Source of the DNA: Raillietiella orientalis
Taxonomy: Eukaryota
Assembly (NCBI GenBank): GCA_036172245.1
Contig: JAYWIR010000001.1
Span: 2,480,001 to 2,544,000 of the forward strand
Length of the DNA: 64,000 bases
Reading direction: 5' to 3'
The notes beneath the pieces were generated by a model. It did no database searches, was not told the DNA's origin, and saw nothing but the letters and a program-made list of their open reading frames with translations. Of this stretch, positions 1 through 62,469 are shown piece by piece. Positions within the stretch are counted from its first letter, which is position 1; every line of letters begins with the position of its first letter. The position numbers and the translations under genes are program-made.

Positions 1-1695
1 CATCTAATACCATCATCTCAATGTGCTTACAGGATCTTCTTGGTTTGATTTTAATTGCTTCCTGCATTTCCCTCGAACTGTTCCACCATTTTTGATCTCC
101 CAATGAGCACGTTTGGCAGTGTGATAACCTGCCATCTTAGGTCCTGCTCCATAAAATCTCAAACGCTTCAATTCCTTATTTCCAGGGATAACCTGTTCCA
201 CCTTGAGAATGACATTTTCATACCTTACATTGCAGGTCTTTCTGATTTTTACCTCTTGAGCATCAAACATTTCAGCTGAGTGGCGTTTGGAACGCCTTTT
301 GCAATAATCAGAAGGAGGTTTAATGGCTTGTCGACATGGTATGCTATGAGGAACATAATCCTTGCTACAGTCCTTTTCTACTTTCTCCTCTTTTATCTTA
401 TGAATCCAAAATTCAATTATGCAGATATTATATGTAGACTTACTAATTTTTCAAGATTTTTTCCTTCCTGAAATACATCAAATGGATATAATATCCTCTC
501 ATAGTGCATCCTAAGGATGTTTCCTATGTGTTTACTTTGGGGATACCCCATGCGAACAGCAACCTTAGCCCATTTCTTTTCTTTGTTAGTTATCAAAAAT
601 CCTCCTGCAGAACTGGTGCATAGATTCAAACATTCCAAATAATATGAAATACCTTCTTGCTGAATTTGCTGATGTAATGTATATAAATCAATCACTTTTC
701 TTTCAATAGTTGGAAGTTTCAAAGAAGAGCCTTGCAATTCCCAAAACCGTGCAATCTTGTCCAAAAAATTCAGTTTGATCCTGGTCAATGCCTACAGAAA
801 AACAAAATTTAACAGTCAAGTAAAGCACAATTTAACCAATGAGCTAGTAACCTCCAGTTCATTTAGCCTCTGTATTCGAGGAGTAAACTTGAAATTGTCA
901 ACATCCAAAGCAAATGGAGGTCTCCATTTCTGGAAAAAGTTATCAGTAATTGATACACATGAATATGCAACACATATTCTTTACAGTATTTTGCTTTTCA
1001 TTCAAATTGCTTACTATGGTAGTAACACATATGTTTAACTTTATATGCTAAGTTGTTCCCTTTAAAAAGGGAACAACTCAGCATAGAAGACAAATACAAG
1101 TGATCTAAAATTGATAATCGATTATACAATTCTCATGAAGAAACTCAATTTAAAAGCAACACATTTTAGCAACAATAAATTGTGGATATGATTTGTTGAA
1201 CATGCAGAATAAAAAAGAGCACTCTTGACTTTGGCCATTCATGAATTCATACTACTGCAAATAAAAGGTTTTCGGTTCTTATGGAAGCAGGAAACTTAAT
1301 TAATGTACTTTGCATGTACATGTGAAGTTTATTACTTCCTTTAAGAAGTACATAACACTTGATCACTGACTCATGAGTCACAATATTCCCACAACTCAAG
1401 TAAACTTATGTAAGTGATCCTAGGACCACTTTACTGTATCTGTTACTGGTTGCAGGAGGAATCAAATTAAAATTGCTATCTTCGAGTAAACGAGAAATCG
1501 GTACATGCAAGAACTAAAATAAAGGTTTTCCTAAATGCTAAATACCATTGGTGGGATAATTTTGCAAATTCCAGTATTTTCAGCTACGGGTTTAATTTGT
1601 GCGATGAACTGTAATGGATCTTTAAATTCCTCTTCTGTGGGACGGAAAACAGGGCACTCTGGGGGTGACTTGAAACAGAAATCTGCTGCACTCAT
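1..1695 (-). CDS. KDM5: Lysine-specific histone demethylase 5 (KDM5/JARID1/lid), 5' part; gene continues beyond the window start
   Basis: Spliced exons 1695-1546 ([49 protein letters not shown], JmjN), 929-852 ([26 protein letters not shown]), 791-653 and 604-444 ([25 protein letters not shown]...[10 protein letters not shown]), 396-31 (DYVPHSIP...[18 protein letters not shown]). All junctions checked are GT-AG. Confidence 0.96.
1044..1085. repeat. Inverted repeat (20-bp arms, one mismatch) in the first coding intron of KDM5
   Basis: TATGCTAAGTTGTTCCCTTT-AA-AAAGGGAACAACTCAGCATA read directly. Confidence 0.9.
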
Positions 1696-1772
1696 TGTTT
1701 CATGACTTCTGGAATATAAGCTGTCAAATAAACATACGCCAACTACTTTTGCAGAAGTGAACTTTTACATAC

Positions 1773-2820
1773 CAGCCTGCTTATACTGATATGCACATAG
1801 ATATTACTGCAACTTCATTTGTGGTTCCACATGAAACATGCGAACGGTGCAGAAGGCTCCCTAAAACATGGCTCTATAACGCCATGTAACGCTAAAATAC
1901 TTTTGCGTTCTTTGCTACTTCTAACAATGTCTCAATACAACATGCGTGATTGCATCAAAAGCTGCTCCACTTCGATGAGTGTGGGATGAAGCATTTGATG
2001 GAGTGTCACTGTTGGCTTCGATTTGAGTTCAAGAAATGTAACAACTACCAAAACAAGCTCACATTTTCCGCTTCAACACCATACCAAAACGCCAGCCTCG
2101 TTTCTACCGTCTCTTGTTTTTCCAAACCTCTGACGGCAATGACCAGCATCACCTACGTAAACACAACCAATGGAATTGCTTAACAGCTGATCTGAAAATG
2201 GCGCTACCTTCAAATGTGTGTGAGCAAAGTTTTAGAAAGGGGCAGAACGTTTCCAAGAATTTCTGTATGTAACGTCGCCTCATTACGTAATCCGGAAGGA
2301 AATCAGCTATTGTGCTTGTGTTTGAGAGGCACGATGTCATGAATTGGAGTGGATTGTTGGTCTTTAACGATAAAGAGGTAGTTTTGTGGTTGTGAATGTT
2401 TCCCATTGCTTCCTTTGCAATAGAGATGATGCGAAGTTAACGATTATGGGCTAATACCGCTGCATTTGCAGTTTTCGATTTTCTAATGAAAAATCCGATG
2501 TAAATACCAATCGACTGAGTTCGTATGGGCATTTAAATAAGCACTGCAGGTTTTACTGATGATGTTATTCCATACTACAGTGTAGATTCGTAAAATGTTC
2601 GTTTACAGAAGTTGCAGTTTTGAGAAGGTTTTTTAAAAGCTTCGGAATTCATGTTAAGTGCTGTGTGTGTTTCTAATCGAAACTAGATATTTGTGTAAAT
2701 TTTAATTGATACATGTTTGAGAACAGATCACCAGCCTTACATTTTAATTTTTGGAATCATTTCTTGGTGGCATTTGAAGTTTGAGTTTATACATGAGGTG
2801 TTATTTTGTGCATTTGGTGT
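1773..2820. promoter_or_regulatory. Putative bidirectional promoter / 5' UTR region shared by KDM5 and CCDC77
   Basis: Start codons diverge 1.18 kb apart (1695 minus, 2875 plus). The interval looks richer in CpG than the flanking exons. Transcription starts are not determined. Confidence 0.6.
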
Positions 2821-2874
2821 AAGTGACTATCTGTTTCAGGTATTTCTTATCAGACTGAAACAGGTGTTTGATAA

Positions 2875-4241
2875 ATGAACAAATCAGATTCCAATACTAC
2901 TGATTGGGACAAAGAAACCATCGATCATGCTATCCCATTGCCACCATCAGAGGAAGTGTTGTACCAACTTCAACAAAAATTGCATGAATACAGTTATGAA
3001 GGAAGTAGCATGAAACCCTTTTTTGAAAAGTAAGCTTGAATTTTCTTGTTAATGAATAAAAGCAGCAGGCTCACTACAGCTATTACTGTTCATAAGGATG
3101 TGCAAGAGAAGCTAAACCATTATGAATCGGAGCTATCAAGGCTGCAAATGTTGGTCAGTAAGTTACAAGGTCAGTTATTCAAAGAACGTACTCAATTATT
3201 TGAACTTCATGAAGAAACAGAAAGACTTAAGGTAAACAGATCTAAACATAAAAGTAATCTCTGGCCTAGAGTTTTGAAAAGGAATATTGGAAAGTACTTC
3301 AACTCTTGGAGTTTGTGTGCATTTCATGCCAAGAAAAAGTCTTGACCATTTATCCTGAACCTTCTGATAAGTTGAAAACCCTCTGTGACCATTCATCAAC
3401 AAGACCTTTATCAGCTAGAGAGGTGAAATTAGAAATATTAAAACTTTTAGAGGAAAAAGAGCGATTGGAAAAAAAGTTGCAATTGGAAAGTAGCAAAGCC
3501 CAAGAACAGATTGAACAACTTCTTGCAGACCAACAGTTAATCATTCAGGAAAGACAACTGGAAAGGCATCATCACCATCAACATGTAGAACAGCTCTGTC
3601 AAAGTGTCTCTCAAGGCCACAAATTATTGCTGGAAGTTACACAGGAATATCTTTATCTACTGGATGCAAGCCGGCAGAAAGAGTGGCAGTATCTTCAAGA
3701 GAAAGACCATCTGCAACAGTGTCTGCACAAATTGCAAAAACAGATGCAACAAAGAGCTAAACAACATGAGAGTGATGAAATTCGGAAACTGAAAATATGC
3801 AATCTTCAAAATCAATTGCAAATGACTCAACGCCAACTAGAAGAAAGCAAGGCAGCCTGTTTAATTCATACTTGTGAACTGAAAAAAACAAAACAACAAT
3901 TGCAAGAAGTGCGTCTTTCATTTACAACCCAGCAAAAGGAATTGCAGGATCATTGCAAAATGTTACAAAATGATCTTAACGTTGTGCGTAAGCAGAATAA
4001 GCAGATGGAAATAAGAAGAAGATTGGAAACTGAAGGATTTAGAAATGATATTTCATTACTGCGCCGTCAGTTGCAACAGATTGAGCATTCTTTGTTCAAA
4101 CTAAGTAGTTGTTGCATCAGACAAAATGAAGTTAATGCTGTCATGGTTAACACTAAGAGCATTCAAGATGAGATTCGTTTAATTTGCAAAAGATTGCAGA
4201 ACTTTCAACATGTTCTTGAAGAGCCCATGAAATGCAAATGA
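2875..4241 (+). CDS. CCDC77: Coiled-coil domain-containing protein 77
   Basis: Exons 2875-3029, 3069-3231 and 3270-4241, with 39- and 38-nt GT-AG introns. Motifs LPPSEEVL, QLFKERTQLFELHEETERLK and RRRLETEGFRNDISLLRRQL match recalled CCDC77 motifs (LPPSRELL, LFQEREHVLRLYAENDRL, LENEGFKTDIKLLRQKL). AATAAA at 4374-4379. Confidence 0.85.
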
Positions 4242-7200
4242 TATTACAATTGAATGTGGTATTTGAGTATTGTTAAAAGGGGAATTCCTTGATTGTCTCT
4301 TTGGTTGCAGGATACTAAGGGTGAATTATGATAACCATTTATCAAGTCCTAATCATGCCTAACTTACAGTTGCAATAAAAAAAGTCCGTTAGATGCTTTT
4401 ATTCCATACTTAGATATGGATAGAAAAAGCGCACGAAACAACCTTTTGCCTACATTAGCTGAAAATACTCAGCTTGATGTATTCCATAAGCACAAGTCTG
4501 TGGAACGTGCCGATGTTGACGATGTGCCACTGAATATCTCCACATCTTGTGATACTTTGAATTTTATTTGTTTCCCAAAATTCTTTTCACTGGTCTGACA
4601 TGTGCCCCGGAGTGGAAATTTTTCTTTCATGAAAATTTGCGTATCTCCGCAGGAAAAGTTCTTTGGCCAAACAAGAAAAGTGGAATCAAGTGAATTTCTC
4701 AAACTTGGATTCCCTGAAAATCGAGGCCTCCTTGTTTTCGAATATGGTTCGTGCTTTGGCGTGGTCCAAGGTTTTTAAAAAGTTGTGTGCGGCCAACCCG
4801 CTGGTTTTCGAAACGGTGGATTCGGTAAGTAGGGATGGGGTAGATCGTGAAAAAATCGATTCTGTCAGAAAACACTTTCCTCTGGTGTTTTGGCATTCCG
4901 GTTACTGTGGTATAACAGGCAGAAATACAATTGACAGAGGGCCTACGTGGACACACTTGATTTAGAATTCTCTATTAGGTAATTGGATGTGTGTACTCTT
5001 GTTAACAAAAATAAGAAATTTTCGCAATACGCGTAAGTATTTTGTTCATTATGCATTACCACAAGGATTGTCTGACATTGCTTTTCCTATAAAGAGCAGT
5101 GGTAGAGAGATCTTTTCGTTTACACTCGACTCCCAAGATCGGCAAACTTTCGTTCCTATCATTTAGAATACAGCGACTTTAGAGCTCCGTTAAAACTGCT
5201 GAAAAACTAACTCGAAAGCCGAACATAGTATACGTTTGAAAAATCGGATAAAAATTCTTGAAAAATCTTTATAAACTAAACAGTTTTCGGAATCGGATTT
5301 CGGTAGAAGATAGGCAATTTAAAATTTCCGTAGATTCTCACAATTCATTTATGACGGTTTTTTCTGTACAAATAGTGTATGACAAGCATTTAATAAACTC
5401 AGGTGAACTGGTATGTATTTTTGTGATCACATCACGACACTTGGGAAGCACCCAGTGGACTAACCTATGCGAAAGTAGTCGTTTTGATGAAGAGAAGGCC
5501 AAAAAAGGCGACCCTTGTAATAAATAAGTTCTCTTTCAGAATTCTGGATTTTAGTGGAGCTTTCCTCTGTGTGTGAGTTTCTTCCTCAGATGGTTCTCTG
5601 TTAGCAAGATCAGAAAAATGATGCAGAGGTAGAGCACCTTGTAGCGCCGGCAAGAAGCATTCCTCCTGTAAAGGTACTTATTCCAAGTCTGTCAGTAATA
5701 CCAAATTCGCTGACTTTTCGCAGCTAATAAAAACTGACGGAATTTTTATGAACTCTTGTTTAGGCTTCCTAAATTGGGGAATCAGTATGAAAATGGCAAT
5801 AGTTTGAATACAGCAATTGTTTCCATGTTTTGCTTGACGTGTTTTTTTTTTTTCCGTATTTATCTTTTTCGAATGCATTTTTCTTCTCCGTATCAACGTA
5901 CCAATTCTCTGACCTATATTTATGGTATCTGACTTGCTTTATTACGATAACAGTTTGGTAAAAGTGCTTTCTGTCATGTTATTATTATATGAAAACACTT
6001 GGAATAATTTGTTTTTTCTCTTATCATACCTCAGAGTTACTTTATTTCGTGGTTTGTGTTTGGATCCAAATGACCAGGACACCTTTTCCTATCTTGGTTC
6101 CATTTCCTCCTTTTCCGCTCTTTCGTAATCCTGGAACCGATTAAAAATGATCGACCGATCATACTGATGATACTGTGTACAAACTTCAAAGTGTGGGCTT
6201 CTCTGGTTTTGTTTTCTACGTGTCTCGCTCTCAGATGTGCCTTTGGAAGTTTTTGAGGTCTGTGTTCAACTTCACAGAATTTCAATTGAGTAAGCTTTTA
6301 GACGGTTTCTTTCCTGTATAATAGGATACGCCCATATAAAAGAACTGCTGCTGATGTGAGGTAGTTTTTACCATAAAATTGCAACTTGTAGGTCTCCAAA
6401 TAAACAATTTGTAAACAATTTACTGGCAAATTTGAGCAATCTGTTTGAATATTTTTTTCTCTTAAATCGTTCAAGAGATCTCGGCTTACAAGCGTTCAAA
6501 TAGTTTTATCGATACTACTTCCAAAATGGTCTGTTATACTTAAAAATATGCTGAACTCAACAAGGTTGCAGCGTAAGAATTCTGACTTGAATGCCACAAA
6601 GTATTCATATACCCTTCGACAGTCGTAAAAAAAAGTAGTTTATAAGTTGAAAAGATTTCCGTCACATGTTGGAAAGTCATGCCATGAAATTATGATGCCT
6701 CAGTAAACATAGATGAAAATAGTGCGCAATGCAGGATCATTAATTTCATTTTTTTTGTTCAGGATTATGAAATCAAAATCTACTGCGCTCATCATATCAA
6801 TGCGTTGTTGTCAGAAAATGTTTTGTATGTATGCTGTGAGTAATATACTATACCAATGCTGGAAAACTCCCGGATCTTAACTGTATTTTATTTTGAAGGT
6901 CTCCAGGATCCAGAAAAGTAATATACTTGTTCACCGACTCAATAAGACAAAAGCGGTGCAAATTGCGTGGTTTGATTTCTTCAAAAATGCGTATTGCATT
7001 CAGTTCCTTTCCTTATTGCTTTACTAAACAGAACATTGTTTTGGCCCAAAGGTAATTCATTAAAATTTCCAAAAAGCTGCAAACCAACCTTGTGTCATTG
7101 TAAACATTTTAATGCTTTCTCAAAAGCAATAATACCTACATATCGTTGATAATCTGGAAAGAGTTGTATGCATGTGATTATTGAATAACATGATTGAATT

Positions 7201-9153: not shown

Positions 9154-12100
9154 TCAGGGTACCTTAACACTTTCATGGGATTTTTGATGGAAACAAAAAC
9201 TTATTCCATTTCCCCAACATCTTTTTAGCACAAGATCTGGGAGTCCTTTTTTATCAGTTGCATGATGCCACTGAGATAAATCACAATTGCAGTCCGCATT
9301 TTCAGGAGGTGGTCGAACTTGAATCCCATTAACACATCGTTGGCAGCGAATTCTAACATCTCGTGAAGAGTTCATGTTCATTCTGAAGCTACTTACTTGT
9401 CATGGGTGTCGCTGATAGTGGCTTCTTCTAAACAGAAAAGTTCTCTTAATTCTGCTGCACTAAAGTGCCGTTCCACATCTTCCCCTTGATCAACAACACA
9501 TGTACTAAGAGCTTTCTTGTGAGTTTGACGCTGGAATATCTTTTCTTCAATGGTCCCTGTCTATCAATCACGTTTAACTTTGTATACTTGTTTAGTTTAA
9601 ATTTACCGTCAACAATCTGTACACAAAACACACTTTTCTCTGTCCATCACGCCATACACGAGCCATTGCTTGATCATCATTGGCTGGATTCCAATCAGGA
9701 TCAAACATGACCAAGCGATTTGCTCCTATCAGATTAAGTCCACAACCTCCAGCTTTGCTGCTTAGCATAAATATGAAATCTTTGCCATCCGGGTCATTAA
9801 ATTTCTCCACTACTTTGGCACGTTTCTTGATAGACATGGAACCATCCAAACGCACAAAAGGATATTGGCGTTGCTGGCAAAGTTGCTGAAGGAGTTCTAG
9901 AGTCTGTGTATAATTGGAAACCAAAACAACCCGATCTGAACTTGTGGCACGAATAACAGCCAGCAACATATCTAGCACCTTCATTTTCCCAGAGAGTTCA
10001 GGTATCAGCTTCCTGCAATTGCCTTGAGCAAGCCTGGAAATATTCAACAAACCTCATATTGAAGTTTTCTGGAAAATGCTGAAGCGCTTTCTCTAGACCA
10101 TCAACTTTTTCGCAGCAGTGCTCGTAAAGAAGAACAGGATGATTGCACAATTTTTTGAGTATTGTTATAGCCGATAAACTGGATGCAGATAATTTATCAC
10201 CACTTGCTATCCAAAGGTCATATGAGTGATGAAACGACAAGTTACCTTTCAGACGATTTTGTATAGCATCTGATCGGATAAATTCCTTGTACAAAGCAGT
10301 CTGGAGAGTACCCAACTGACAACAAACAATCATTTCATATTTTACAGGCAAGTACTTTGAGAGAAGAGAGGCAGTGCGTCGAATTATACACCTGGGAAAA
10401 TGATGTGGATCAAGGCTCTAACTGTTACCTGTTAACAATATTGGCAAGATCTTTCAAACGCTCTTGTCCCAGTTGCTGTGCTTCAACAGTTGCTGTAGAA
10501 TCTCGACCTCGTGTTATAGGAATTTCATAAATTTTCTTAAACTGCTGTACTGTACCCAGAATTCCCTACAGAACCATCATTATAACCCCCTAGATCTGTG
10601 ATACCTCATTCACAAAATGGATGAGACTAAAGTACTCTAACAAATCATTTTGTATGGGAGTTCCCGAGAGCAGAACACGGCGCTTTGCTGGGAGCTGACA
10701 TAATGCCTGATAGGTCTGGTTTTCTGAATTCTTGAGACGATGTCCCTATGCAAGATCCATGATACAAGTCTTAAGAGATCAACTCACTTCATCACAAAGT
10801 ACCAATCCTACTTGCCCTTGGTGAAGCACATGGGCATGGGCACGAAAAGTCTCATAAGATATGATGAGCACTGAGTTCAGGAAATGACGACTGGTAGCAG
10901 AAAGAAACTGCTGTAAATTTTGATCGATGTCAGTCTTGGAACCACCATCAATCACTACTGGATAAATACGCCCTTCAAGCCACTTGGCAATCTCATTAGC
11001 CCAATTCTACAAGACACACATATGCAAAACTAAGCATTAGATTTTTAATACACCACAATCTCATATGGGCAAAAATAGTCTGTAAATATAATTGCAAGCA
11101 AAAGTGGAGTTCAATGCTATTTTGTTTGAACCAAACAAATACTGGCAACATAATATTTTTAGTGCAACTGCCAATATCCTTTCTTTTTTTTTTTGGTATC
11201 TGCATTCATTACTAATATTTTTGATTTTAGCATGCTGTCACAAACGATCAGGTAATCTGATTCCTAGTAAAACTGACTTGAATGTTATCCATGAGAACAT
11301 TAGATTTCATTACATCAGTATTAGCCACAAGTAGACTTACTTTGACTAGACTACTGGGAGCTACAATGATAGCCTTGTCGATTTCTGGACCATAATTGGG
11401 GCTCTGGCGTAGCAGTGTCCACAGCAAAGTGATACATTGCAATGTTTTGCCAAGACCCATTTCATCTGCCATAATGCAACCAAAACTGTTTTCTATTCGT
11501 CTTCCTGTTACACATTCCCACATAAACTTTACTCCCTGATAATCATGTTAGATCACAAGTTTTGCCATAAAGTTACCTAACTAACTTCTCTCTGATGAGG
11601 TCTTAGTACTTTGCTCAACAGTGGGTCAACAACTACATGCAAAAGCTCCTTCTGACTGTGGCATACCAGCAATACATTGAATATCTTTTTTTTTTTACCT
11701 ACGGATCCATATTCAGTTTTTCATGAGCTGACTGCTGAGGAGGATGATATAATATCAAGGCATCAGGTTCATTAGGATCATGCAATGCATGGCGTGCACC
11801 CACACGACGAATTCCAAGAGATCCAAAACCTGGCAATCCTTTATAATTTGGAATAGGAATCTTAAAAGGTCGCGAAAGAATATTTGCTATAAGTTGTTCC
11901 TGAAAGAAGCTCCACCATTCAAAAGAAAATGAAACAAAAAAGTTTCCTAACATGATTGGTTAAGCCACAAGAATCATTTTCAGCATCAGCTTCTGTTTCA
12001 CATTTGGAAATCTCATCTCCTTTCGTCAAACGATTCAATGCGCTCGCTCGCCTGATATTTGAATACTGTTTACTTGTGTGCCTCAACTTTGTTTTAGAAA

Positions 12101-16389: not shown

Positions 16390-19300
16390 CTTTATTGTTC
16401 GTTTGGTATGATTACAAATCATATGCAAGCGGTTCTGGACAGTCTTCCGTAGTTGATATTTTCTTCATGGGGTTTCGCTGACTTGCTGGAAATCCTCCGG
16501 TGGAAGATCATTATCTAAACCCTCGAAGAGTTGTCGTTTTTCTTCTTCAAGTGTGTGGCACATATGGAGCTTAAGTACCGGATACAGGTGGTCACCATCC
16601 GATGTCTCGGTTCTACAAGCTTTCTCTTCGGTATTCCCAAGTACTGGATTACTTGTTCATTAGCAGGATCCCATGCTTCCAGAGAGCCGACGATGATCGC
16701 ATGTACTTTTGTTTGTTTTCCACTACTTCCGAGTTGCAATACGATATCCCTATATTTCTCTTTGTTTTTTCTGGCTGTGCCGAACGTCTCCTTGCCATTT
16801 TCATATGGGCAGCAGAAGTCCAGCACACTTATTAGATTTTCTTTTTCTAAAACCAGATCTGGTTGAGGTCTGGCTTTCCTGGTATTCTCAGGCTGCTCGA
16901 GATAAGACTCCACTTTGCTTCATCCACTGCGGCCTTCCTGATGATCTCTTGGATCGAATCATGACGTTGCATCGTTAGAGGAACGTGCTTCTTGCATCTG
17001 TTTGGTACGTGGGATAGCGCTTCGTTCTCTGTCCCACATCGCCGACAGGTGCGTTCATGTCCTTTTTTGGTTGGTCCAGCGTTGATTGGCAGTAAGTTTA
17101 GTCTTGTTGCATGGATAAACTTGTAATCCTGAAATCTTAGGTGGATTCCGTTCGTGTGAAAAGAGCACGAGGAGTGATGCATGCCCACTCACTGCATGAC
17201 TTTTTCCCTTGACTAATGTGGTTTGGGATTAGGGATTGCCATGCGTGTCCTTCTGCAATGATCTCACGCCGGAGGTGATCGTCCTTCTTGTTGCGCTGGT
17301 AAAGATTACGCCGTCAACTGTTATACGGGGTTCTTGTTGAAATTCTCAGCGGACTTTGACTCTTCTAAAGGTCTTCCTTTCGTCCAGGGACTCTCTATAT
17401 CATTCCCGGGTTGTGTGGTTTCCATGTGTAGAGTACCCGTCATAAATTCCCCGAGGTTTTCATCTGTCGGGATTTCATGGGTTCGTTTCTGGACTATTTC
17501 TTCCAAGGTATCGTGTGCTAACTTCATTACCACATTGTCTGATGGGGTGAGAAGTTTGAAGCAGCTATTTATGGTGAAGAGGTGATTCTCCAGCTATCTT
17601 CATTAGTCCTAGGCAGCCTTTACTTCTTTCTCCATACAAGTACTCATTCGCTGCCCAGGGTGGTAGGTGTAAGGCCTTTATTTTCTTCCTGACTTCTTCG
17701 TCTATATGCTGCCACTCTTCTTTTCGATGAGTTCCCAGCCTCTTGTAATGAACTAGTCTGGGGTAGAAGAAGGTTTTCATCGCGTCTATTTTCTGCCACC
17801 CTGAGAGTTCACTCTTTAGTATGACATTCGCCTTCTGGCAGATGTCCTCCTTGGATGGTTGAGAATTGAATACCTCAACACCAAAGGGTTTTCCCAAGTA
17901 TTTGTACGCCCGTGATAAGGCGATACAAGGAATTTTCCCTTCTTTCAGCTGGATTTCAACGTTCCTTGAACCTTTCGGAGCCCTCCCGCTGTAGAATAAT
18001 GAGGCGCATCTAGCCGGGTTGATGGATTGCTTCACTAATTTTTGGAAATGTGCTACCATTTTTTTGACTACTGATTCTTCTTTGCCCAGTATGACTATGT
18101 CGTCTGCGTAAGCCATTATCGCATCATCCTCATAGTATTGTCTCATTGAGCAGAGGATGGGTTCTATAGAGATAATAAATAGGAGTGAGCTTAGAGGACA
18201 TCCTTGCTCCACTCCGCGCCGCACGGAGAAGGTTTCTGTCTTTTCCAGTTATATGAAGGCTGAACTTCCTGTATACGCTTCTTGGATAATATCCATTAGT
18301 TCTTCTCCTGCGCCTGCTTCATTTAGTGTTTCCATGATTGTTTCGTAGAAAACTGTGCCGAAGGCATTCGCGAAGTCTATAAAGACTGCGCAGAAATCCT
18401 TCGACCGGCGGCGAGCAGCATCCAGTCTTATTTGCAAGACGAAGTTCTGTTCTAGCACTCCATTGAAGGGAAGGAAGCCCTTCTGTTGAGTGCCGATGAT
18501 CTCGTTTTCCAGAATCAATCTTCTTCTTCGGGTGGCCAAGCATTTGGCATCTGTAGGCACTGTTGCCAATGGATATTGGCCTCCAGCTGGAGATGTCTTC
18601 TGCTGCTGATGGGTTCTTCACTATGAGTATTGTTCTGGCACACTTCCACTCTTCTGGGTTTCGCCTAAACTTTTTTAAGATATTAAAGACTACTGTAAGT
18701 ATTTCCACCTCTGGATCAATGGTCTTCCATCCTGCGTAGGTAATGCCATCTTCTTCGGGGGATGAATTCTCCTCACTTCCCGCAGTATCGCCGCTACCTC
18801 CTCCCGCGTATATAGAGTTAGGTCTACGGGGGATGCCATTTGACCTCTTCCGTATAATATCTTTTTGGGGAGCTCTTTGTCTGTTTCCTGTTTTGTTTCC
18901 AACTCATTCTGAAAATGCCTTTCTACCTTGCTAACCTACAGCTTACAAGTTGGGTCCTGCTGGCCTAAAATCTCTCTAACCGTTCTTCTATTCATGTTGT
19001 AAGCTTTTCGACTGACGATCTGTTGTTTGGGTCAATTCTCGGCTTCTTTCCGCTTTTTCTTCTGTTTTTATTCCTAGTATCTCTTGAATTTTAACTTCTA
19101 CACTCTGATATGTCAGAAGTCCTCCCAACGAGGTCTTTCATTATCTAGGATCCTCTGGAGATGAATTCGATTCTCTCTGAATTTTGAGTAGTGCGCTCTC
19201 CACGTCCACTTTCCTGTCCTGCCTTTTGTTTTCCATATTTTCTGTATAGGTTCCATTCTGCTCGTCCCTTCTGGATGTTCTCGTTTGTTCTCTTGAGCAA

Positions 19301-20150
19301 TTGTGAGGAATGACTGTCTAGAAGGAGGACGAATCACACCACACTCTGTAGTCGATGGGAGCGGGCTGTAACCGTTCCTTTCCTGTGTCTTTTTCCAGTT
19401 CTTCCTCTATCAGAGGGCCTATGATTGCTTCAAAGTTGCCAAACAGCTCTTCATCTTTTCTTGCTTCTAGCGGGGGCATCTCAGGTATTGTTTCCACCGA
19501 CGTGTCGTCATCTCGCTTCTCTGCTTCCTGGGTATTCTCCTTTTGGGTTTCTTCCCCAAGAATATTAATGGATGGAGCTTCCATTTTCACCGTGTTTAGG
19601 TGGCATCCTCCCAGCTCGTTCATGACAGACCTGATGGTTTATTAGGCCTTTTCTCGTCGAAAAGGCCATGCCACACTCCGGTCTGGTACAGATGAGCCTC
19701 GTTGACACTCGTATTGTTACTACGGGGGCAGACGAAGAGAGTTCTCCATCACAAACATGGTGCGAGGACCTTGTTAAGTGTATATCCGCACTACATCTCC
19801 TACATTTGTATTTGTTAATACATCCTCTATTCTGTGCAGGCTTATCACGTGTTTCTTTTTCTGTACTTGGAGTCGAACTAGCGTTGCCCTTGATATATAT
19901 TCGCATCCCGCGACGCCACAGGCCATTGAGGGAGCTAATGGATAAAGTAAGATGATCGCGCGAGCTTGCGGATCCCAATCTACTTTTTCCACTGTTTCCA
20001 TTTCTTCCCTTTTTCCATCCATTTCCACTTCGAGTGTTGGTGGTAACCCTGTCAGGTTTTTTCAGACGAATGGTATCCTTCAGCATAGACAGAGGGGTGC
20101 GTTATCTACCTCTCAGGGCATTATGCACGTGCAGCCTTAGCAGTTTCACA
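16390..20150 (-). mobile_element. Degenerate REL-type non-LTR retrotransposon, NeSL/Utopia-like (zinc fingers, RT, CCHC, restriction-like endonuclease)
   Basis: Frameshifted pieces in the expected order: LLYP..CGVAGC, CRRC..HHVC, CTRPECGMAFSTRKGLINH; SWRPISI; QKGFLPFNGVLEQNFVLQ; IDFANAFGTV; GVEQGCPLS; AYADD; YKYLG; FIHATRLNLLP; CRRCG..EALSHV..RHD; PDLVL..DFCCPYE..KEKY; IIVGSLEAWDP. Ends approximate. Confidence 0.92.
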
Positions 20151-20199
20151 CAAATTTCTCTTTCCTAGCGATATAAAATAGGCACCTTGCAGAACCAAC

Positions 20200-23085
20200 G
20201 ATATTCACTCACCAAGCCGCGGCAGGAGGCAAATGTCCAGTCCGTCTCTTCGGAGTAGTGAACAGGAGGGGTTCCCTTGCGGGCTCCCTCCAGAGAAGAA
20301 ATTCCTACTAGTGGATCCTTTCCGGGTTCCCTTCGGAGAAGATGAAATGGAGAGGACCATCCCCTACCAGGGGGCTCCTCTGGAGAGAATGAGGAAGGGG
20401 ATTCTCTTCGGGGTTTCCCTTCCACAATGTAAAAGGGGAAGTCGGCGTGCTGGAGAAGAAGAATCTGGCAACAGACATCTTCTGTATCCAGTACGATGGC
20501 CACAGTCGGTACACGTCGGAGGACATCGCGAACGCCTTCCAGAGCCATTACATGGAGCATTTTTGACGAAGACATCTGTGCCCGACTAATCAAGGATTTT
20601 TTCTGCGACACCTGGAAAGACGAATGAGTGAAAACCATCGGAGGATGCTTAAAGAGGAAATCTCCGAAGAAGTGAAAGCTGCGTTTGTGGAACTTTGCAA
20701 GGATATGGCGGCGGGCACTGATAGTGTCCCCATTTTCTATCAGCGGTACTTGCATGCCTACCGACGTTTGTTCCACCAGCTAACGCTCTGCATCGGACAA
20801 GAAGGACGACTTCCTGCATCCTTCTACGAGAGTAGGATGAGATTGTTGCCGAAAGGAGGTGACCTGAATACGGTTACCCAATGGAGGTCAATCTCAATCC
20901 TGAACAGCGATGCCAAGTGGTTAGCAAAGATCTGGGCTAACCGCTTAGGCAAGGTCATGCTACAGCTCATCTCTCCCGTCCAGACATGAGCAGTGCCCGG
21001 ACGCCACATGTCGTACAATGTCAAGTGTGCCCAGGCTACCATTGCTCTCAGCCGATATATCGGTGAAAACTTGGTACTGAGTTTTACTGACATGGAGAAG
21101 GCCTTCGATACGGTGGACCATGGGATGCTGCTGAAGATTCTAGGAAGACTGAGCCTCCCAGAACAATTCAGCAACTTCGTGAAGATGATACTTGAAGAGC
21201 AACGCCTTCGGATCAAGATAAACGGGGAAGAGATAGCAGCAATCCGGAAGGAGCGAGGAGTCCGCCAAGGTGACTTCTTAGTCGGATGCTGTTTGTCATA
21301 TACATGAGGTCTTCTCATCATTCATCGAGAGAAGTGGGCACCTCCGCGGAATCACTGCCGACAATCAGAGGCTCACCCATCTGGCTTACGCGGATGAACT
21401 TCTCTTCTTCCTCAAAGAGGAGAGAGATCAGCGTACGTTTCTGGATGTGCTGGAGCTTATGGAAGAAGGATTGGGCTTAAAAATCAACGCCCAGAAAAGC
21501 CAACTTTTGCCCGTCGGAATCCTGGATCTCTACATACTCATGGAGGAAGGATTCCGAAGGAAAGGAAGGAAGGAAGGATGCCAAGTACCTGGGTGTCCAC
21601 ATTGGCGACAATTCATCGTCCCAACTATTATGGAAGGGAATCCTGGAGAAAACGGCGCAAGAAGGAGCGAAGTATACCCGTTTGGACTTTAGCCTGAAGC
21701 GGAGGGCCAACCTTTGGAACGGAGTACTCCTTCCAAAGATACTCTTCGGAGCAGCCTTCTGCAGAATGCATAAAAATACCAGAAGAGAGGTAGAAAAGCT
21801 ACAAAGGAAAACCCTCTGTAGAGGTTATCGACCGAGAGTCCGCCTCAAACCACTGTGCCGTCTATCCCGGTATCCACGGTACCGGGATGAAGTCGCTTGC
21901 ACACGCTGTGGACACCGTGGACGTGCGACAACTCCTCGACATGTCGGAAAACTGGGAAGACTGGCTGTATGCAGCGCACAGGGCTTACTCGTTGATAAAT
22001 AACTCGAGAGGACTGATGATTGCGCTGCTCGGCCGAGTGGGTGAATGGGTCACCATCGACCCAACCTGGGGACGAAAGCAGCAGCTGAAGATCATACCAA
22101 GGATCAAGAAACTCTGGCAGGAGGAATCCATCCTGGTGATCCCGTGGATGCTCCTGGTATCTCCGGATACGAGGAGCTGGATCCACCAGCGGTCCAGGGT
22201 AACCTTGCATGCAGCTCAAGCATGGAGACGAGAAGAGTACCTCCACCACTCCCGAGTACTCAGACACATTGATAGGATAGCTGGGAGATTCACCCACAGG
22301 ACCCACGAAGTGTGGGAAAACCACCACAAATTCGTGTAGTACTTTCAAGAGGGTGGTCCAGGGTAACAAAGAAAAACCTATGCCGACTAATAGTCGAAGA
22401 GGAAAAAGACACCGGTGCCCTCCAAGAAGCCACCGATCGCCAAGGGAGTGCTGGGATAAACCTGTTGGCGATCGAAAGGACGCTCAGAGTGACTTGTCAC
22501 CGGATACACAGGATAACCTCCTGATGTTTTATCATGGAGGAATCCTGTGCGGGACAACCATGAAGCTATTCACGGGAAGAAAAGATGAGACCTGCAAAGC
22601 ATGTGGAGACAAGGATACAAGACTCTACGTCTTGACTTTTCCCACAATGCAACAAGAGTGTCACACCCTCAAAAGGGTTATCGGGCTGCCCATCACATCG
22701 ACCATGGGAATTTTAGCAGGCATGTTCCAAGGAAATGGGAACGTTCCCTGTTACAATCCCATGGTGAGGATGACCATCCTCTTCATCACCGCCATCCTTG
22801 TGAGGTGATGGAAGATGAAGACCACCAGGACCGCCGTATCTCCAATGGAAACCCTGAAAGGGCTTATCCAGAAGGAGATCGGCATAAGAAACTGTGGAAG
22901 AGTACAGGCCTGGAACTACCAACATATCCTGAGAAGGATTGAGGACAACGTCTAGGCATAAACAGTTCCCCAAGTGTAGTGAACCTCAGTGTTAATCTCA
23001 CGAAGCAGACTTCCAGGTGACATAAGTATCATGATTCGAGAAAATGAATGCATGAATATGTAGAGTGAATGATAAAAGAAAATAA
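20200..23085 (+). mobile_element. Degenerate, 5'-truncated L1/Tx1-like non-LTR retrotransposon ORF2
   Basis: LLPKGGDL..WRSISILNSDAKWLAKIWANRL, Q*AVPGRHM, DMEKAFDTVDH, GVRQGD, LAYADE, KYLGV and a C-terminal CKACGDKDT. Multiple stops and frameshifts; no endonuclease domain seen. Confidence 0.9.
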
Positions 23086-32200: not shown

Positions 32201-35200
32201 TTCTGGTAGTAAGCAACCAAGGGGTAAGGTTCAATGTTTAACCGCTTTCAAGAAGTTTGAGATCTTCTCCGGTTTCCGATCGTCACGAAGCAGCAGGAAG
32301 CTGCTAACCTCAATCCATTGAGGTTGGCCGCTTCCAGAACACGTAAGGCTTCCCTCAGAAAGGCATGTCGAGTGAAGGCCTGTTCATCAGCCTTCAGCAC
32401 ATCTCAAGTTCTCTCACTGCAATTTATCAATAGATTCCAATATATCATTAAAAAGAGGGATGATTTCTTTGATCACGTGACAAATTCGTGAAACCGCAGA
32501 ATTTCTCTCATGCTGTGACGCTAGTCGAGTCTTGTATGCCCACGGGTAAGACGCATTGAGGATTCACGTTTAAAGAGAAATTGTCGACGGAACATTCCCT
32601 TCGGAAGGCGCCTTACAGAACTCGAATTCTCTCGATCAAGAAGATTTCGGACTTTCTTTTGTCGGATCGATCGGGAATGCCACTGTCATTTCCGATGAAC
32701 CGGAAAAAAGTTTTTCTCTCTCTGTGCCTCGGGCTGCGTGTCTTCTGGACCAAAAAACAATCACAGGAGATTGTGTTTTTTGGCTTTCCTTTCCAAGATT
32801 TCTGGAACATCTCCGACCTCTTAGCATCCCCCGATGGAACTTCTTCACTCTTTACCTCGCGCAAGACGATGCGAAGTCCATGCCGCGATTTGCACTCTTC
32901 CCATGACGCTCAAGAGAGAGCTTCTCCTTTCTCCTCTGCTCCTGCGGAACTACAGGCTGATATTCTGCGGCATTCGAAATTCTGCACGCTTCAGCTTGCC
33001 AAAGCTTCATCGAGAAAACTTTTCTCAGAGTCGGTAAAGGGAAGAAAAGGAAGTTTGTCATTGGTGACATCTCGGACGTTTGGTTTTTGAATTCGGAGGA
33101 AGGAATGCGCGTACGACCTCTGACCGAAGTTTCTAAAAGCAGAAGAGCGCGAAAAGGTGGAAGACGGTGGGAACGGAGGGATCTCAGTTTAAGGCATATC
33201 GAGAAGATGAGACCATAGGGATAGCAGTCTGGTTTGCAAAAGTGACCCGTGAGAAAAAAAAAAAAAAATCAAGGAAAATCGAATTGTTCGAGGTTTCGGC
33301 ACCCAAAAGCAAGGCTTGGGGACTTTCTGGCTCGCTGTCCCCATCTCTAGTACACCATTCTTCATTCTTTCGTAACACGGCGAAGCAAAACAGTCCTTCA
33401 GCGGCGCTAAAAAAAAAAAAATGAAACCATCGAAAACGGTGTTTGTGGAGGAGTTTGTGGTGGTCATAAATTTGTTCTGCGCTGAAGTCTCCGTTTCCTT
33501 CTTCCAACTTGACATCCATATGACTTCAGTGTGTTCTGGAAGATAGTTATACGTGGCTCAGTTTTCAAGAGATTGAAGAGATGATACAGAACTTCTGCAT
33601 GGGATTGAAAAGGCTCGGAGTGAAGCCAAATGATAGAATCGGCATCCTGTCCGAAACCAGAATGGAATGGTTGCTGACTGCTTTCGGCTGTTTTCTGCAA
33701 AACATCACAGGTATGCTTCGAGATATTTGATAAGAGGAAAAAAAAAAAAATTCAACGCGAACATTTCAGTCGTCACGATGTACACATCCCTGGGAAAAGC
33801 AGGAATCACCGAGATACTGAACGATTCAGGGGTGTCTCTCATGGTGACGTCCAGCTCGTTATTGAAAGGGATATTGGAAATAGTGGTTTCTATTCCGAGC
33901 ATTTCAACAATCATCTGCATAGAGGATAACTTCGGGAATGTGCCTTCTCTTCCCGAGGACATCTCAGTCAAACTTGTTGGATTCCAGGAAGTGTTAAAAG
34001 CGGGAAGGGATGACCCTTTCGGTAAGGTCTGGACACACCACTAACAAAATGCGAATTTCTTTCAACAGAAGCGAAAATCTCCAAGCCAGATGATGTTGCC
34101 GTCATCATGTACACCAGCGGGTGTACCGGGAGTCCGAAAGGAGTCAAACTTCCGCAAGAGGGCTTATTAGCGAGTCTTCGTGCTTTCGAGCAAGAAATAA
34201 CGATCCAGAAGGAAGACATATACATAGCCTACTTGCCCTTGGGGCACTCTCTGGAACTTGTTGCAGGTAGCGAAGTGCGATAAGGGAAATCCTTCTGGGT
34301 CCTTTTCTGCTTTCTCTCCTGTCCTTCCTGCTCACGGATTTTTCCTTATTTTCTTTGGCTCGCTGAGTGCTGAAGAACCGCCGCGCGCCTGGTGGCTCAC
34401 CAATCTCTTTCACACGGTTCCACGCCGCCCGAGGGCGAGTATCGTAACTCTTCAAGTTACAGGGGATACGCGTAGGGACCACCCTGTGAATGCAGGAAGG
34501 CTCCAGAGGAAGGAGTCCTTCCTTCTTACTCTTGGGAGGAAACCCTCCGCCCTGGTTGTCTCCGAAGGGACCACTGGAGGCGGCCGCTCCTCATTCCTTC
34601 TCCATAGAGAACCCGCAAGGGAGACGCTCTCAGTTTCCTCCTCCCCTGAAGAGGAATCCCGAGGGGACACTTCCCAATTTTCTCTGAAGAGTCGCTCCCA
34701 AAGGGAGCGGAGCGCTTCTTTGCACCCTGGAGAGGTGTAGGTCCACCAGCTCCGTGGTGCGAGATGGACGGCTCTATTTTGCCAACCGGAGAACTTCGAA
34801 GGGAACCAACTCCTTGAACCCTGGAAGGAATTCCTGAGGGTCGGCTTCCGATCCCGTCCAGTCAGCGAGGGCATCCGGAGACTTCTGCCAGTGCCCAAGG
34901 AACCAAGCAAGAATTCGTTCTTCTTCTTTCCAGAGCTGCTTTTCTTCACACTCGGAATCCGCATCGGGTACTCTTCCCCTACCACCATCATGGATACGGG
35001 CACCAAGCTGGCTCCCGGATGCAAGTCGGACCTCCGCATTCTCCGACCCACACTCATGACCTGCGTGCCGGTGAATGGGCAGGGCGAATCATACCCGAGA
35101 CCCTACCTCTCTTTCCTCTCCCTCAGCTCATCCTGGACCGGATTTTCCAGAAGATCACGGAGAACGTCGACCAGGCTTCCTTGCTGAAGAGAGTCATCTT

Positions 35201-36345
35201 CCGTCACTCTCTCAGGTACAGGATGCACTGGATGAGGAGGGGCTACTCCACTCCCCTCCTGGATGCACTGGTCTTCAAGAAGTTGAAGGAGATCCTGGGA
35301 GGGCGGGTCCGGACGATCGTCTGCGGGTCCGCCCCCTTATCCCACGAGACCCACGTATTCATCCAGGCGGTGTTCGGGACATACGTCCGACCGGGCTACG
35401 GCCTGACCGAATCCTGCGGGACGGCATGCTGCTGTGAAGGTGAGGGGCACCTTGCGGGGCACAGAAACAACGTGCTGGGCGTACCCAGAAGGAAATTTCC
35501 AAACGCGGATCGTGGGACACCCCAACTACTGGGTATATATCCGGCTGATCAACTGGGAAGAGGGTAAGTTCAAGGTGACCAACTCCCCGTACCCTCAAGG
35601 AGAAATCTGCATCGGTAAAGAACAAAAAGAAAACAAAAGCAGACTGCAAGCCGATTGGCCTGTGTTTCAAAAACCTCTCGCCAGGGGGTCCAGTCGTTGC
35701 CCTGGGGTACCTCCGTGACGTTCCCGAAAGCGAAAATTTCTTCCTGGAGAACGGCATGCGGTGGTTCAAGAGCGGGGACATCGGCGAGCTCCAGATGGAT
35801 GGGACCTTGAGGATCATAGGTGATTCGAAAGGTTGTCCCGGCAACGACTTCCCTCCAGACAGGAAGAAGGACCTGGTGAAGCTCCCCAACGGAGAGTACT
35901 TGTGCCTGGGGAAGATAGAAAGCCTCCTTAGGCGCTGCAAATACGTACAGAACATATGCGTCTGTGCCAACAGTCTGTTCATGAGGGTGGTGGCCATCGT
36001 GCAGCCTACAATGGAGACGCTGCCCCTCCTCAGGAGGAAGTCCATCGACACCTTGAACCAGGAGAGCGTCGTAGAAGCGGTTGTGCTGGAGGAGATTCAG
36101 AAGATGTGCAGAGAAAGTGCGCATATGGGGCGCTGCACCGAGGCGCGACACCTCCCCCCCCTTCCATTCCAGGCGGGCTGCGTAGGATCGAGACCCCCAA
36201 GCTGATCAAGCTGTGCCCGGAGCCTTGGACGGTGGAGAATGGACTGCTGACGGCTTCCCTGAAGATCCGGAGAAACGCACTGTTGAAGATGTACCGCGAC
36301 GAGATCCAGGAGCTGTTCGCGAAGATTGGGAATGCGCTCGATTAA
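29250..36345 (+). CDS. ACSL: Long-chain-fatty-acid--CoA ligase, ACSL3/4-like, paralog A (appears complete)
   Basis: Exons 29250-29369, 29617-29724, 29772-29888, 33530-33710, 33770-34021, 34069-34266, 34934-35070, 35127-35439 and further exons to the stop at 36345. Motifs ETRMEW, YTSGCTGSPKG, YLPLGH, GYGLTE, WEEG, GDIG..DGTLRIIDRKKDLVKL, LTASLKIRR. AATAAA at 36356. Confidence 0.93.
31100..32400 (-). mobile_element. Possible highly decayed L1-like retroelement remnant inside ACSL-A intron 3
   Basis: The minus-strand peptide RFLHADERPERKFHAYFRR (about 31670-31725) resembles the L1 EN-RT linker motif (W..EGER.TKYF). The rest is broken by stops. Confidence 0.3.

Positions 36346-59629: not shown

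Positions 59630-62469
<2,840 letters not shown>

Follow-up and report, generated by a model that had tools for sequence, protein, structure and literature searches.

A compact head-to-head pair of KDM5 and CCDC77-like genes in an invertebrate genome, with a putative shared promoter region

In the window, the 64,000-nucleotide stretch of Raillietiella orientalis DNA analysed here, the 5′ end of a KDM5 gene on the minus strand faces the 5′ end of a coiled-coil gene on the plus strand. The locus raises the question of whether these genes are the counterparts of human KDM5A and CCDC77 and, if so, what has kept them together. The KDM5 start codon is located at 1693–1695 (−) and that of the CCDC77-like gene at 2875–2877 (+), leaving an ATG-to-ATG gap of 1180 bp; the ATGs of the two open reading frames (ORFs), at 1695 (−) and 2875 (+), confirm the divergent starts 1.18 kb apart described in the sequence-only reading. 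Two divergent ATGs at such a distance are unremarkable alone; what lies above chance is the identity of both genes. The exon borders of both genes (Table 1) are predictions, made by reading the sequence and by alignment to homologues. The window also contains a RAD54 ORF, which shows 71–81% identity across all animal phyla.

Table 1. Predicted features of the locus, in window coordinates
Feature	Position	Strand	Basis and remarks
KDM5 (JARID1/Lid-type) histone H3K4 demethylase, 5′ part	1..1695	−	Pfam, PDB, homologue search
KDM5 ARID-domain exons	417..791	−	Pfam and PDB matches; GT..AG borders inferred
KDM5 coding exon 2	852..929	−	ORF 816–980; AG at 930–931 and GT after codon E, from sequence
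KDM5 coding exon 1	1546..1695	−	ORF; ATG 1693–1695; JmjN at 1552–1653
Intergenic region, presumed promoter region for both genes	1696..2874	.	1179 bp between start codons
Single CpG-replete block	1801..2600	.	CpG observed/expected 0.82–1.17 in 200-bp bins
CCDC77-like exon 1	2875..3030	+	52 codons; ATG and donor GTAAGC at 3031, from sequence
CCDC77-like intron 1	between 3030 and 3097	+	66 nt, GT-AG
CCDC77-like exon 2	3097..3231	+	45 codons, ending ...ETERLK; profile match
CCDC77-like intron 2	between 3231 and 3282	+	50 nt, GT-AG
CCDC77-like exon 3	3282..4241	+	319 codons, stop TGA 4239–4241; phmmer and profile match

The minus-strand gene is cut by the start of the window ahead of its PHD and JmjC domains, and about 350 of its first codons lie inside. 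Exon 1 encodes a JmjN domain at residues 15–48 (Pfam, E=1.2e-18); its donor GT was placed straight after codon 50 using the sequence together with the alignment spacing (IIPPM-KWRPPF versus IKPPPNWQPPF). The peptide of exon 2 agrees with the invariant columns of the KDM5 homologue alignment. The ARID domain was recognized by Pfam with E=1.2e-17, and the top six of nine PDB matches to the ARID exon are Lid and JARID1A–D (E from 7e-35 to 8.5e-29), followed by ARID1 at 5.7e-5. These PDB matches break in two near query residues 47–57, and the ARID region contains a predicted in-frame intron of about 48 nt (~603–650) that has no stop codon. The homologue search returned 952 proteins at E<=1e-10; among the best 120 of them, every named protein carries a KDM5/Lid or a generic label, and other families are represented by none. 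No protein is more than 59% identical to the ARID exon, those of arthropods and of sharks being similarly distant. Further downstream, ORF 13–450 (−) contains the KDM5 linker motif, a 17-residue match to an aligned KDM5 homologue. JARID2 carries its JmjN far inside the protein, unlike the N-terminal JmjN of KDM5. With an N-terminal JmjN, a KDM5-type ARID and the linker motif, the earlier assignment of this gene to KDM5 holds.

The plus-strand gene is of three exons (52+45+319 = 416 residues) separated by GT-AG introns, and it spans 1367 bp. An exhaustive phmmer search with exon 3 against 1.84 billion representatives gave 22 matches at E<=1e-3, the best at 2.5e-10. Ten of the 22 were looked up; three of these are named, all as CCDC77 (koala, wall lizard and bowfin), and the other seven are unnamed. 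A word-index homologue search with the same exon gave no match at E<=1e-3 among 1110 candidates, and Pfam placed nothing above threshold on any of the three exons; the matches to Spc42p (0.015), SlyX and B3GALT2_N that it listed were rejected as chance coiled-coil matches.

A CCDC77 profile was built from 11 of the phmmer matches, with the query left out, and run on the 1977 ORFs of the window. It matched exons 3 and 2 only, the next ORF having E=0.24. Exon 3 aligns colinearly with profile positions 155–424 (E=1.8e-28, 96.7 bits) and exon 2 with positions 34–94 (E=7.9e-6, or 1.1e-6 with an N-terminal profile). Exon 1 places LPPSEEVLYQLQQKLHEY opposite l.PSkeLlefyrekl of the N-terminal profile, which is the expected place, with a non-significant E=2; the N-terminal P[ST]xELLxFY region of CCDC77 is degenerate in the window protein. 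Exon 3 also contains the C-terminal motif RRRLETEGFRNDI. It corresponds to the pattern R[RH]xx[EDN]xEG[FY]xx[DE][IV], which was derived in this analysis from the CCDC77 matches and is not a published signature, and which occurs in 20 of the 22 phmmer matches and in one of the 1977 window ORFs, exon 3 itself. Intron 2 is inserted immediately 3′ of the RL(K/Q) codon (ENDRL(K/Q)), a position common to the window and to two further loci described below (L032 and L047). The phmmer names, the colinear profile, the motif and the intron position agree, and they bear out the earlier proposal that the coiled-coil gene is CCDC77; judged by its sequence, it is a divergent member of that family.

The KDM5–CCDC77 adjacency could nevertheless be accidental, if the coiled-coil gene were not a true CCDC77 orthologue or if the two genes had become neighbours independently in each lineage. 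Coiled coils are prone to spurious matches, exon 1 is without significant similarity, and the identity to vertebrate CCDC77 is only 20–30% for most matches. Against this, of 1000 shuffles of exon 3 the best reached −2.5 bits, and reversing the sequence gave −16.6, both below zero, compared with 96.7 bits for the real exon; nor would such an accident account for a colinear match over two exons, a common intron position and a family motif.

Other KDM5 loci bear on the same point. Among metagenome contigs we surveyed the 5′ ends of 80 KDM5 loci, 43 of which have the JmjN exon; seven JmjN-bearing loci with at least 2.5 kb of upstream sequence, amounting to six distinct sequences, were testable. 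When run on the 12,444 ORFs of the 80 KDM5-bearing contigs (400 kb), the CCDC77 profile found matches only upstream of KDM5 and antisense to it, at three loci (L032, L033 and L047) from two organisms. In two of the six testable contigs (L032/L033 and L047) CCDC77 lies head to head with KDM5. CCDC77 is of seven colinear exons in L032/L033, and the L032 protein is 39% identical to the window protein over 46 residues. L047 has a two-exon CCDC77, and its KDM5 exon 1 is 88–93% identical to termite proteins, making it a termite-like contig. The inferred spacing of the start codons is 1180 bp in the window, 1229 bp in L032 and ~1680 bp (about 1678) in L047. CCDC77 is expected to be single-copy per genome, and its appearance beside KDM5 in two more organisms within 400 kb of sampled sequence, always antisense and upstream, is very unlikely by chance. 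A fortuitous or convergent adjacency is already disfavoured, and we regard it as extremely improbable.

The 5′-5′ orientation is kept in all three invertebrate loci, the window, L032/L033 and L047. The linkage is not universal, since in one of the six testable contigs (L018) RFC1 and not CCDC77 is the divergent upstream neighbour of KDM5. In L004, L022 and L076, with 8.2, 2.8 and 4.0 kb of upstream sequence, respectively, neither CCDC77 nor anything else recognizable was found upstream of KDM5. L015, L023, L077 and L026 gave no CCDC77 match either, within flanks of 1.5–2.5 kb that are too short to indicate absence. The proposal of an ancient conserved pair gained two more unrelated invertebrate contigs, and is tempered by the four of six testable contigs in which the pair was not found.

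In humans, too, the two genes are neighbours, as the sequence-only reading had stated, and we take them to be oriented head to head. Their adjacency agrees with the published gene order ...SLC6A13, KDM5A, CCDC77, B4GALNT3... (PMC8303811) and with Table S3 of Touceda-Suárez et al. (2020, Mol Biol Evol, PMC7530604), in which KDM5A and CCDC77 hold positions 3 and 4 on chr12, 12,123 bp apart when each gene is represented by one transcript. The pairing is not new, as it has already been catalogued as ancient microsynteny: Table S1 of the same study lists KDM5A=CCDC77 (GRB_ID 106, pair 2561) among the ancient microsyntenic pairs, with N_NVsp=2 of 5 non-vertebrates. The accompanying code 10100 probably denotes amphioxus and sea urchin, judging from how the species are ordered in the paper; the legend itself does not spell this out. 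If so, the insect-like L047 and the window represent further lineages. Through our survey the pair, until now known from two of five non-vertebrates, gains an insect-like lineage and another invertebrate one, and its probable origin moves closer to the bilaterian ancestor. A chicken study contains both genes merely within one unordered list covering 1.9 Mb, as far as its accessible text goes. In the 12 of 16 supplementary files of a sponge paper that were searched, KDM5 is mentioned and CCDC77 was not found. In the accessible portions of the literature naming both genes, no statement on a shared KDM5A/CCDC77 promoter was found.

What might have kept the pair together is suggested in part by the intergenic region. 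It holds one CpG-replete block, whereas the flanking gene-body bins have CpG observed/expected ratios of mostly 0.0–0.44 (range 0.0–0.70, with the maximum at 1401–1600). The block is probably an island covering both 5′ ends, and we infer that it is unmethylated. L047 has a comparable block, with bins 3001–5000 at 0.75–1.04 versus 0.04–0.69 in the flanks, most of which are <=0.41; the intergenic region of L032 shows no clear CpG island. Bidirectional promoters usually have less than 1 kb between their start sites. The ATG gap of 1180 bp exceeds this limit, which is respected only if 5′ UTRs fill part of the gap. Reading the sequence by eye, we noted a possible 5′-UTR intron acceptor at ~2838 (+) and, immediately 5′ of ATG 1695 (−), a candidate GT..AG intron of 52 nt; with such introns on both sides, the start sites would lie closer to each other than the ATGs do. 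A shared bidirectional promoter for KDM5 and CCDC77 is plausible: the start codons lie close together at each of the three loci, and two of these have a single CpG-replete island between the genes.

The same region could also be read more simply. An ancestral pair might have persisted passively, with no bidirectional promoter and no co-expression, if a gap of 1–2 kb filled by the separate promoter of each gene offers only a tiny target for breakpoints. The ATG distances of 1180–1680 bp give room for two separate core promoters, and the loss of the pair in some lineages, as in L018 with RFC1 beside KDM5, implies that it is not obligatory. The three intergenic regions also have no sequence in common: blastn between those of the window, L032 and L047 gave chance-level matches only, with no nucleotide similarity, and of the ETS, YY1-like, NRF1, E2F, CCAAT, CRE/PAR, DRE, M1BP and ZNF143 motifs none was found in all three apart from a trivial CCAAT. 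However, in L047 the KDM5 intron 1 measures 5.7 kb and the CCDC77 intron at least 1.9 kb, yet the intergenic gap is still ~1.7 kb; growth of the introns without growth of the gap suggests that the gap as such is constrained. Moreover, the window and L047 each have one CpG-replete block between the genes instead of two, and conserved 5′-5′ pairs show raised co-expression as a class (Irimia et al. 2012, Genome Res, PMC3514665). On balance we consider passive persistence unlikely, though it keeps a minor share of our confidence.

A different cause is implied by the published classification. Touceda-Suárez et al. (PMC7530604, Table S1) assign the pair to the putative regulatory blocks, the trans-dev gene being KDM5A and the bystander CCDC77, rather than to the co-regulated bidirectional pairs; the class was assigned automatically from Gene Ontology terms, which lessens the weight it lends to this explanation. 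In a genomic regulatory block, KDM5 would act as a developmental regulator with enhancers inside or beyond CCDC77, making the two genes inseparable. Human CCDC77 is a large gene, as such a block would have it. In the window, by contrast, the entire gene occupies 1367 bp and its introns of 66 and 50 nt are not the long, enhancer-holding ones expected of a bystander, so that enhancers embedded in the neighbour have no room here. The 5′-5′ arrangement with a short gap in three invertebrate loci is, according to Irimia et al. (PMC3514665), the signature of co-regulated pairs as opposed to regulatory blocks. We therefore judge a regulatory block to be improbable as the reason for the linkage.

Taken together, these observations favour, with a probability of roughly 70%, a reading in which the genes are KDM5 and CCDC77 orthologues and form an ancestral head-to-head pair kept by one compact promoter region that both of them use. 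The gene identities, the orientation and the short spacing were observed in three unrelated invertebrate loci, and the CpG island in two of the three. The island would serve as a shared bidirectional promoter, and the two genes would be co-expressed. The head-to-head arrangement would be older than the divergence of this lineage from insects and, going by the literature, from deuterostomes. One partner would be an H3K4me3/2 demethylase and the other a coiled-coil component of the centriole A-C linker, the role described for CCDC77 by Bournonville et al. (2025, Nat Commun, PMC12290023). The most likely cause of the survival of the pair would be that both 5′ ends lie on one compact promoter region of ~1–2 kb; a breakpoint anywhere between the genes would then damage at least one promoter, and so the pair would survive.

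A further-reaching version would treat KDM5–CCDC77 as a functional unit as old as bilaterians, in which one compact bidirectional promoter ties expression of the eraser of H3K4me3 to that of a structural protein required in centriole duplication. The genes would be expressed jointly, for example in proliferating or ciliating cells, and the pair would split only upon rewiring of the promoter or upon loss of the A-C linker and CCDC77, as in C. elegans, which is reported to lack CCDC77 and in which no A-C linker is seen (PMC12290023). We hold this version to be speculative and rather unlikely.

In animals, gene order is under selection in few cases only, and conserved head-to-head pairs count among these. 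The value of the present locus lies in its compactness: with a gap of 1.2 kb and a partner gene of 1.4 kb, it separates the two usual explanations, a shared promoter and enhancers hidden in the neighbour. Otherwise the locus adds a further instance to a class that is already well described, and leaves current understanding unchanged.

Compared with known proteins, the minus-strand product resembles KDM5/JARID1 (human KDM5A–D and Drosophila Lid) in having a JmjN at the extreme N-terminus, then an ARID, then the FYGAGPK linker; the comparison covers the ~350 N-terminal codons, the catalytic JmjC domain and the PHD fingers lying outside the window. The plus-strand product shares with CCDC77 the family motifs, an all-coiled-coil build and its size (416 residues versus 360–500 in full-length matches). 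It is very divergent, however: the matches listed are 20–42% identical to it, and the longer ones 20–31%. As a pair, the window genes belong to the same two families as the immediate neighbours recorded in PMC7530604; the human pair has a gap of 12.1 kb and is classed as a regulatory block, whereas in the window the genes are 1.2 kb apart and CCDC77 is almost devoid of intron space. A general model is offered by the 595 conserved pairs of Irimia et al. (PMC3514665), which are enriched in 5′-5′ orientation and short intergenic distance, and for which a shared bidirectional promoter together with co-expression was proposed as the cause. HSPD1–HSPE1 is an example from that set. Its shared promoter is experimentally established, whereas that of KDM5–CCDC77 is putative; like HSPD1–HSPE1, KDM5–CCDC77 is a non-paralogous pair, arranged head to head across a short gap, whose orientation is kept across phyla.

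Two divergent genes occupy the opening 4.3 kb of the window; their start codons lie 1180 bp apart, in agreement with the 1.18 kb of the sequence-only reading. On its domains and homologues, the minus-strand gene is assigned to KDM5. Exon 1 encodes JmjN at residues 15–48 (Pfam, E=1.2e-18) and ARID lies two exons beyond (Pfam, E=1.2e-17). When the ARID exon was compared with PDB sequences, six of the nine matches were Drosophila Lid and human JARID1A-D (E 7e-35 to 8.5e-29), followed by ARID1 proteins at only 5.7e-5. The PDB alignments break at a ~48-nt intron in the ARID domain (about 603–650, minus strand), which is in frame and free of stop codons, so that the unspliced KDM5 ORF reads through. 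The 5.8-billion protein collection returned 952 proteins at E≤1e-10; in the best 120 of them, the named ones were all KDM5/Lid or carried a generic label, and other families were absent. The top identity among the matches listed is 59%, indicating that the collection contains no close relative of the organism. The ORF at 13–450 includes the ARID–PHD1 linker, as in the KDM5 fragment P0037; the catalytic half falls outside the window.

For the plus-strand gene, predicted to comprise 416 codons in three exons, Pfam provided no family and a word-index homologue search gave no match. Exhaustive phmmer comparison of exon 3 with 1.84 billion representatives yielded 22 matches at E≤1e-3; the top one reached 2.5e-10, with 26% identity across 286 residues. 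Three of the ten matches examined bear names, all CCDC77 (koala XP_078012159.1, Podarcis A0A670JP63 and Amia MBN3305247.1), and the remaining seven are nameless. A CCDC77 profile was built from 11 phmmer matches, leaving out the query, and run against all 1977 stop-to-stop window ORFs of at least 20 aa. Exon 3 scored E=1.8e-28 (96.7 bits, profile positions 155–424) and exon 2 scored 7.9e-6 (positions 34–94), with the third-best ORF at 0.24. Among 1000 shuffled versions of exon 3 the top score was −2.5 bits, and the reversed exon scored −16.6; coiled-coil composition does not account for the match. The motif R[RH]xx[EDN]xEG[FY]xx[DE][IV] occurs in 20 of the 22 phmmer matches and, within the window, in the exon 3 ORF alone, as RRRLETEGFRNDI. 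Exon 2 ends in ...ETERLK followed by GT, an intron codon position common to the CCDC77 genes of two metagenome loci, L032 and L047 (ENDRYK/GT, ENDRLQ/GT); exon 1 aligned at the expected place with a non-significant E of 2. Judged from these alignments, the plus-strand gene is very probably a divergent CCDC77 orthologue. According to PMC12290023, CCDC77 forms part of the A-C linker between triplets of the centriole; centrioles depend on it for their integrity and duplication, and C. elegans reportedly lacks it.

Features of the window, with strand and basis of assignment
Feature	Position	Strand	Basis
KDM5 ORF start	ATG 1693–1695	-	read from sequence
CCDC77-like exon 1	2875–3030 (ATG at 2875)	+	sequence and homologue alignments
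CCDC77-like intron 1	66 nt, GT-AG	+	sequence and homologue alignments
CCDC77-like exon 2	3097–3231	+	sequence and homologue alignments
CCDC77-like intron 2	50 nt, GT-AG	+	sequence and homologue alignments
CCDC77-like exon 3	3282–4241 (TGA end)	+	sequence and homologue alignments
RAD54-like SNF2 helicase gene	9592–10417	-	Helicase_C 3.6e-24, SNF2-rel_dom 8e-10
Non-LTR retrotransposon reverse transcriptase fragments	17565–22000	both	RVT_1 2e-11, 1.7e-5
AMP-binding (long-chain acyl-CoA synthetase-like) copy 1	33637–36345	+	Pfam
AMP-binding (long-chain acyl-CoA synthetase-like) copy 2	41633–43437	-	Pfam
AMP-binding (long-chain acyl-CoA synthetase-like) copy 3	59847–62375	-	Pfam

The RAD54-like gene is located about 5 kb downstream of CCDC77; its protein is 71–81% identical to RAD54L across all animal phyla, and the Meloidogyne-labelled protein P0150 is by far its top score (358 bits). 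The reverse transcriptase fragments are oppositely oriented. G+C content rises from ~36% in the first 14 kb to 57–65% at 26–31 kb and 60–64 kb, an unusually sharp contrast inside 64 kb, and long ORFs occupy almost every reading frame of these two G+C-rich stretches. The three AMP-binding copies (Pfam, down to E=1.4e-21) occupy the G+C-rich part on both strands.

Using the conserved KDM5 N-terminus (alignment A1), we fetched metagenome contigs with 10 kb flanks, giving a sample of 80 KDM5 loci and 400 kb in total. Against the 12,444 survey ORFs, the CCDC77 profile matched in three loci only. L032 and L033 are 99.93% identical across 7141 bp and were thus counted as one organism; they carry seven colinear CCDC77 exons upstream of KDM5 on the opposite strand, and L047 carries two exons so placed. 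KDM5 exon 1 of L047 shares 93% identity with P0037, 91% with the Zootermopsis protein and 88% with that of Cryptotermes, which assigns this locus to a termite-like insect; KDM5 of L032 is nearest to chelicerate proteins, at just 62–71% in JmjN. In L032 the inferred KDM5 and CCDC77 ATGs (4327, minus; 5556, plus) are separated by 1229 bp; the corresponding distance in L047 (3263, minus; 4941, plus) is about 1678 bp.

The JmjN exon was present in 43 of the 80 loci, and seven of these, representing six distinct sequences, extended at least 2.5 kb upstream. CCDC77 stands head to head with KDM5 in two of the six. The divergent upstream neighbour in L018 is instead an RFC1 C-terminal domain (2062–3057, minus strand; Pfam 4.9e-29), and in that lineage the linkage has been lost or never existed; farther out is a mitochondrial carrier gene. 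The other three showed nothing recognisable upstream of KDM5 over 8.2 kb (L004), 2.8 kb (L022) and 4.0 kb (L076). Taken together, these proportions indicated that the pair is old and recurrent, but not universal. The proposed ancient microsynteny is supported and now reaches two further invertebrate lineages, one of them insect-like; we put the probability that the pair is orthologous and ancestral at about 0.9.

The sequence-only reading attributed its persistence to a shared promoter, in which one compact element in the gap would serve the 5′ ends of both genes. The gap is 1.2–1.7 kb in three unrelated genomes, and stays short in L047 even though introns there have expanded to several kb. 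A single CpG-replete block (observed/expected 0.82–1.17) occupies 1801–2600 of the window, whose gene bodies within 1–6000 are depleted (mostly 0.0–0.44, one bin up to 0.70); L047 is alike, with an island at 0.75–1.04 and flanks at 0.04–0.69, mostly 0.41 or below. From this contrast we infer a promoter island free of methylation within a genome that methylates its gene bodies; the depletion implies germline DNA methylation in the organism. A second CpG-replete block at 4601–5400, downstream of CCDC77, may be another promoter. Against a shared promoter, the ATGs are more than 1 kb apart, the three gaps have neither a common motif among those tested nor common sequence, and L032 has no clear CpG island between the genes. 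Passive retention, owing to a very small breakpoint target, fits the same data, except that it explains neither the presence of just one island nor the stability of the gap. The putative shared promoter is plausible, with chances that we consider about even.

In human, the two genes are presumably head to head, and a longer CCDC77 transcript probably begins at the KDM5A promoter. That they are adjacent is confirmed by the gene order in PMC8303811 and by Table S3 of PMC7530604, where they are consecutive on chr12 and their representative transcripts are separated by 12,123 bp. The parts of the literature searched contain no statement that KDM5 and CCDC77 share a promoter. In Irimia et al. 2012 (PMC3514665), on the class to which such pairs belong, about 600 conserved pairs are enriched in 5′-5′ orientation, short gaps and co-expression. 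The KDM5-CCDC77 pair itself is already catalogued, as '2561.0 [KDM5A=CCDC77]' (GRB_ID 106, Supplementary Table S1, Touceda-Suárez et al. 2020, PMC7530604). The authors found this entry themselves, in a de novo search (key NEW=10100); it is conserved in two of five non-vertebrates (amphioxus, acorn worm, sea urchin, centipede and limpet); these would be amphioxus and sea urchin if the code follows the species listing order, on which the legend is silent. The published label, which offers a third explanation for the persistence of the pair, describes a regulatory block with CCDC77 as a bystander. Different from that label, which does not fit the window, CCDC77 here is compact, with a length of just 1367 bp and introns of 66 and 50 nt.
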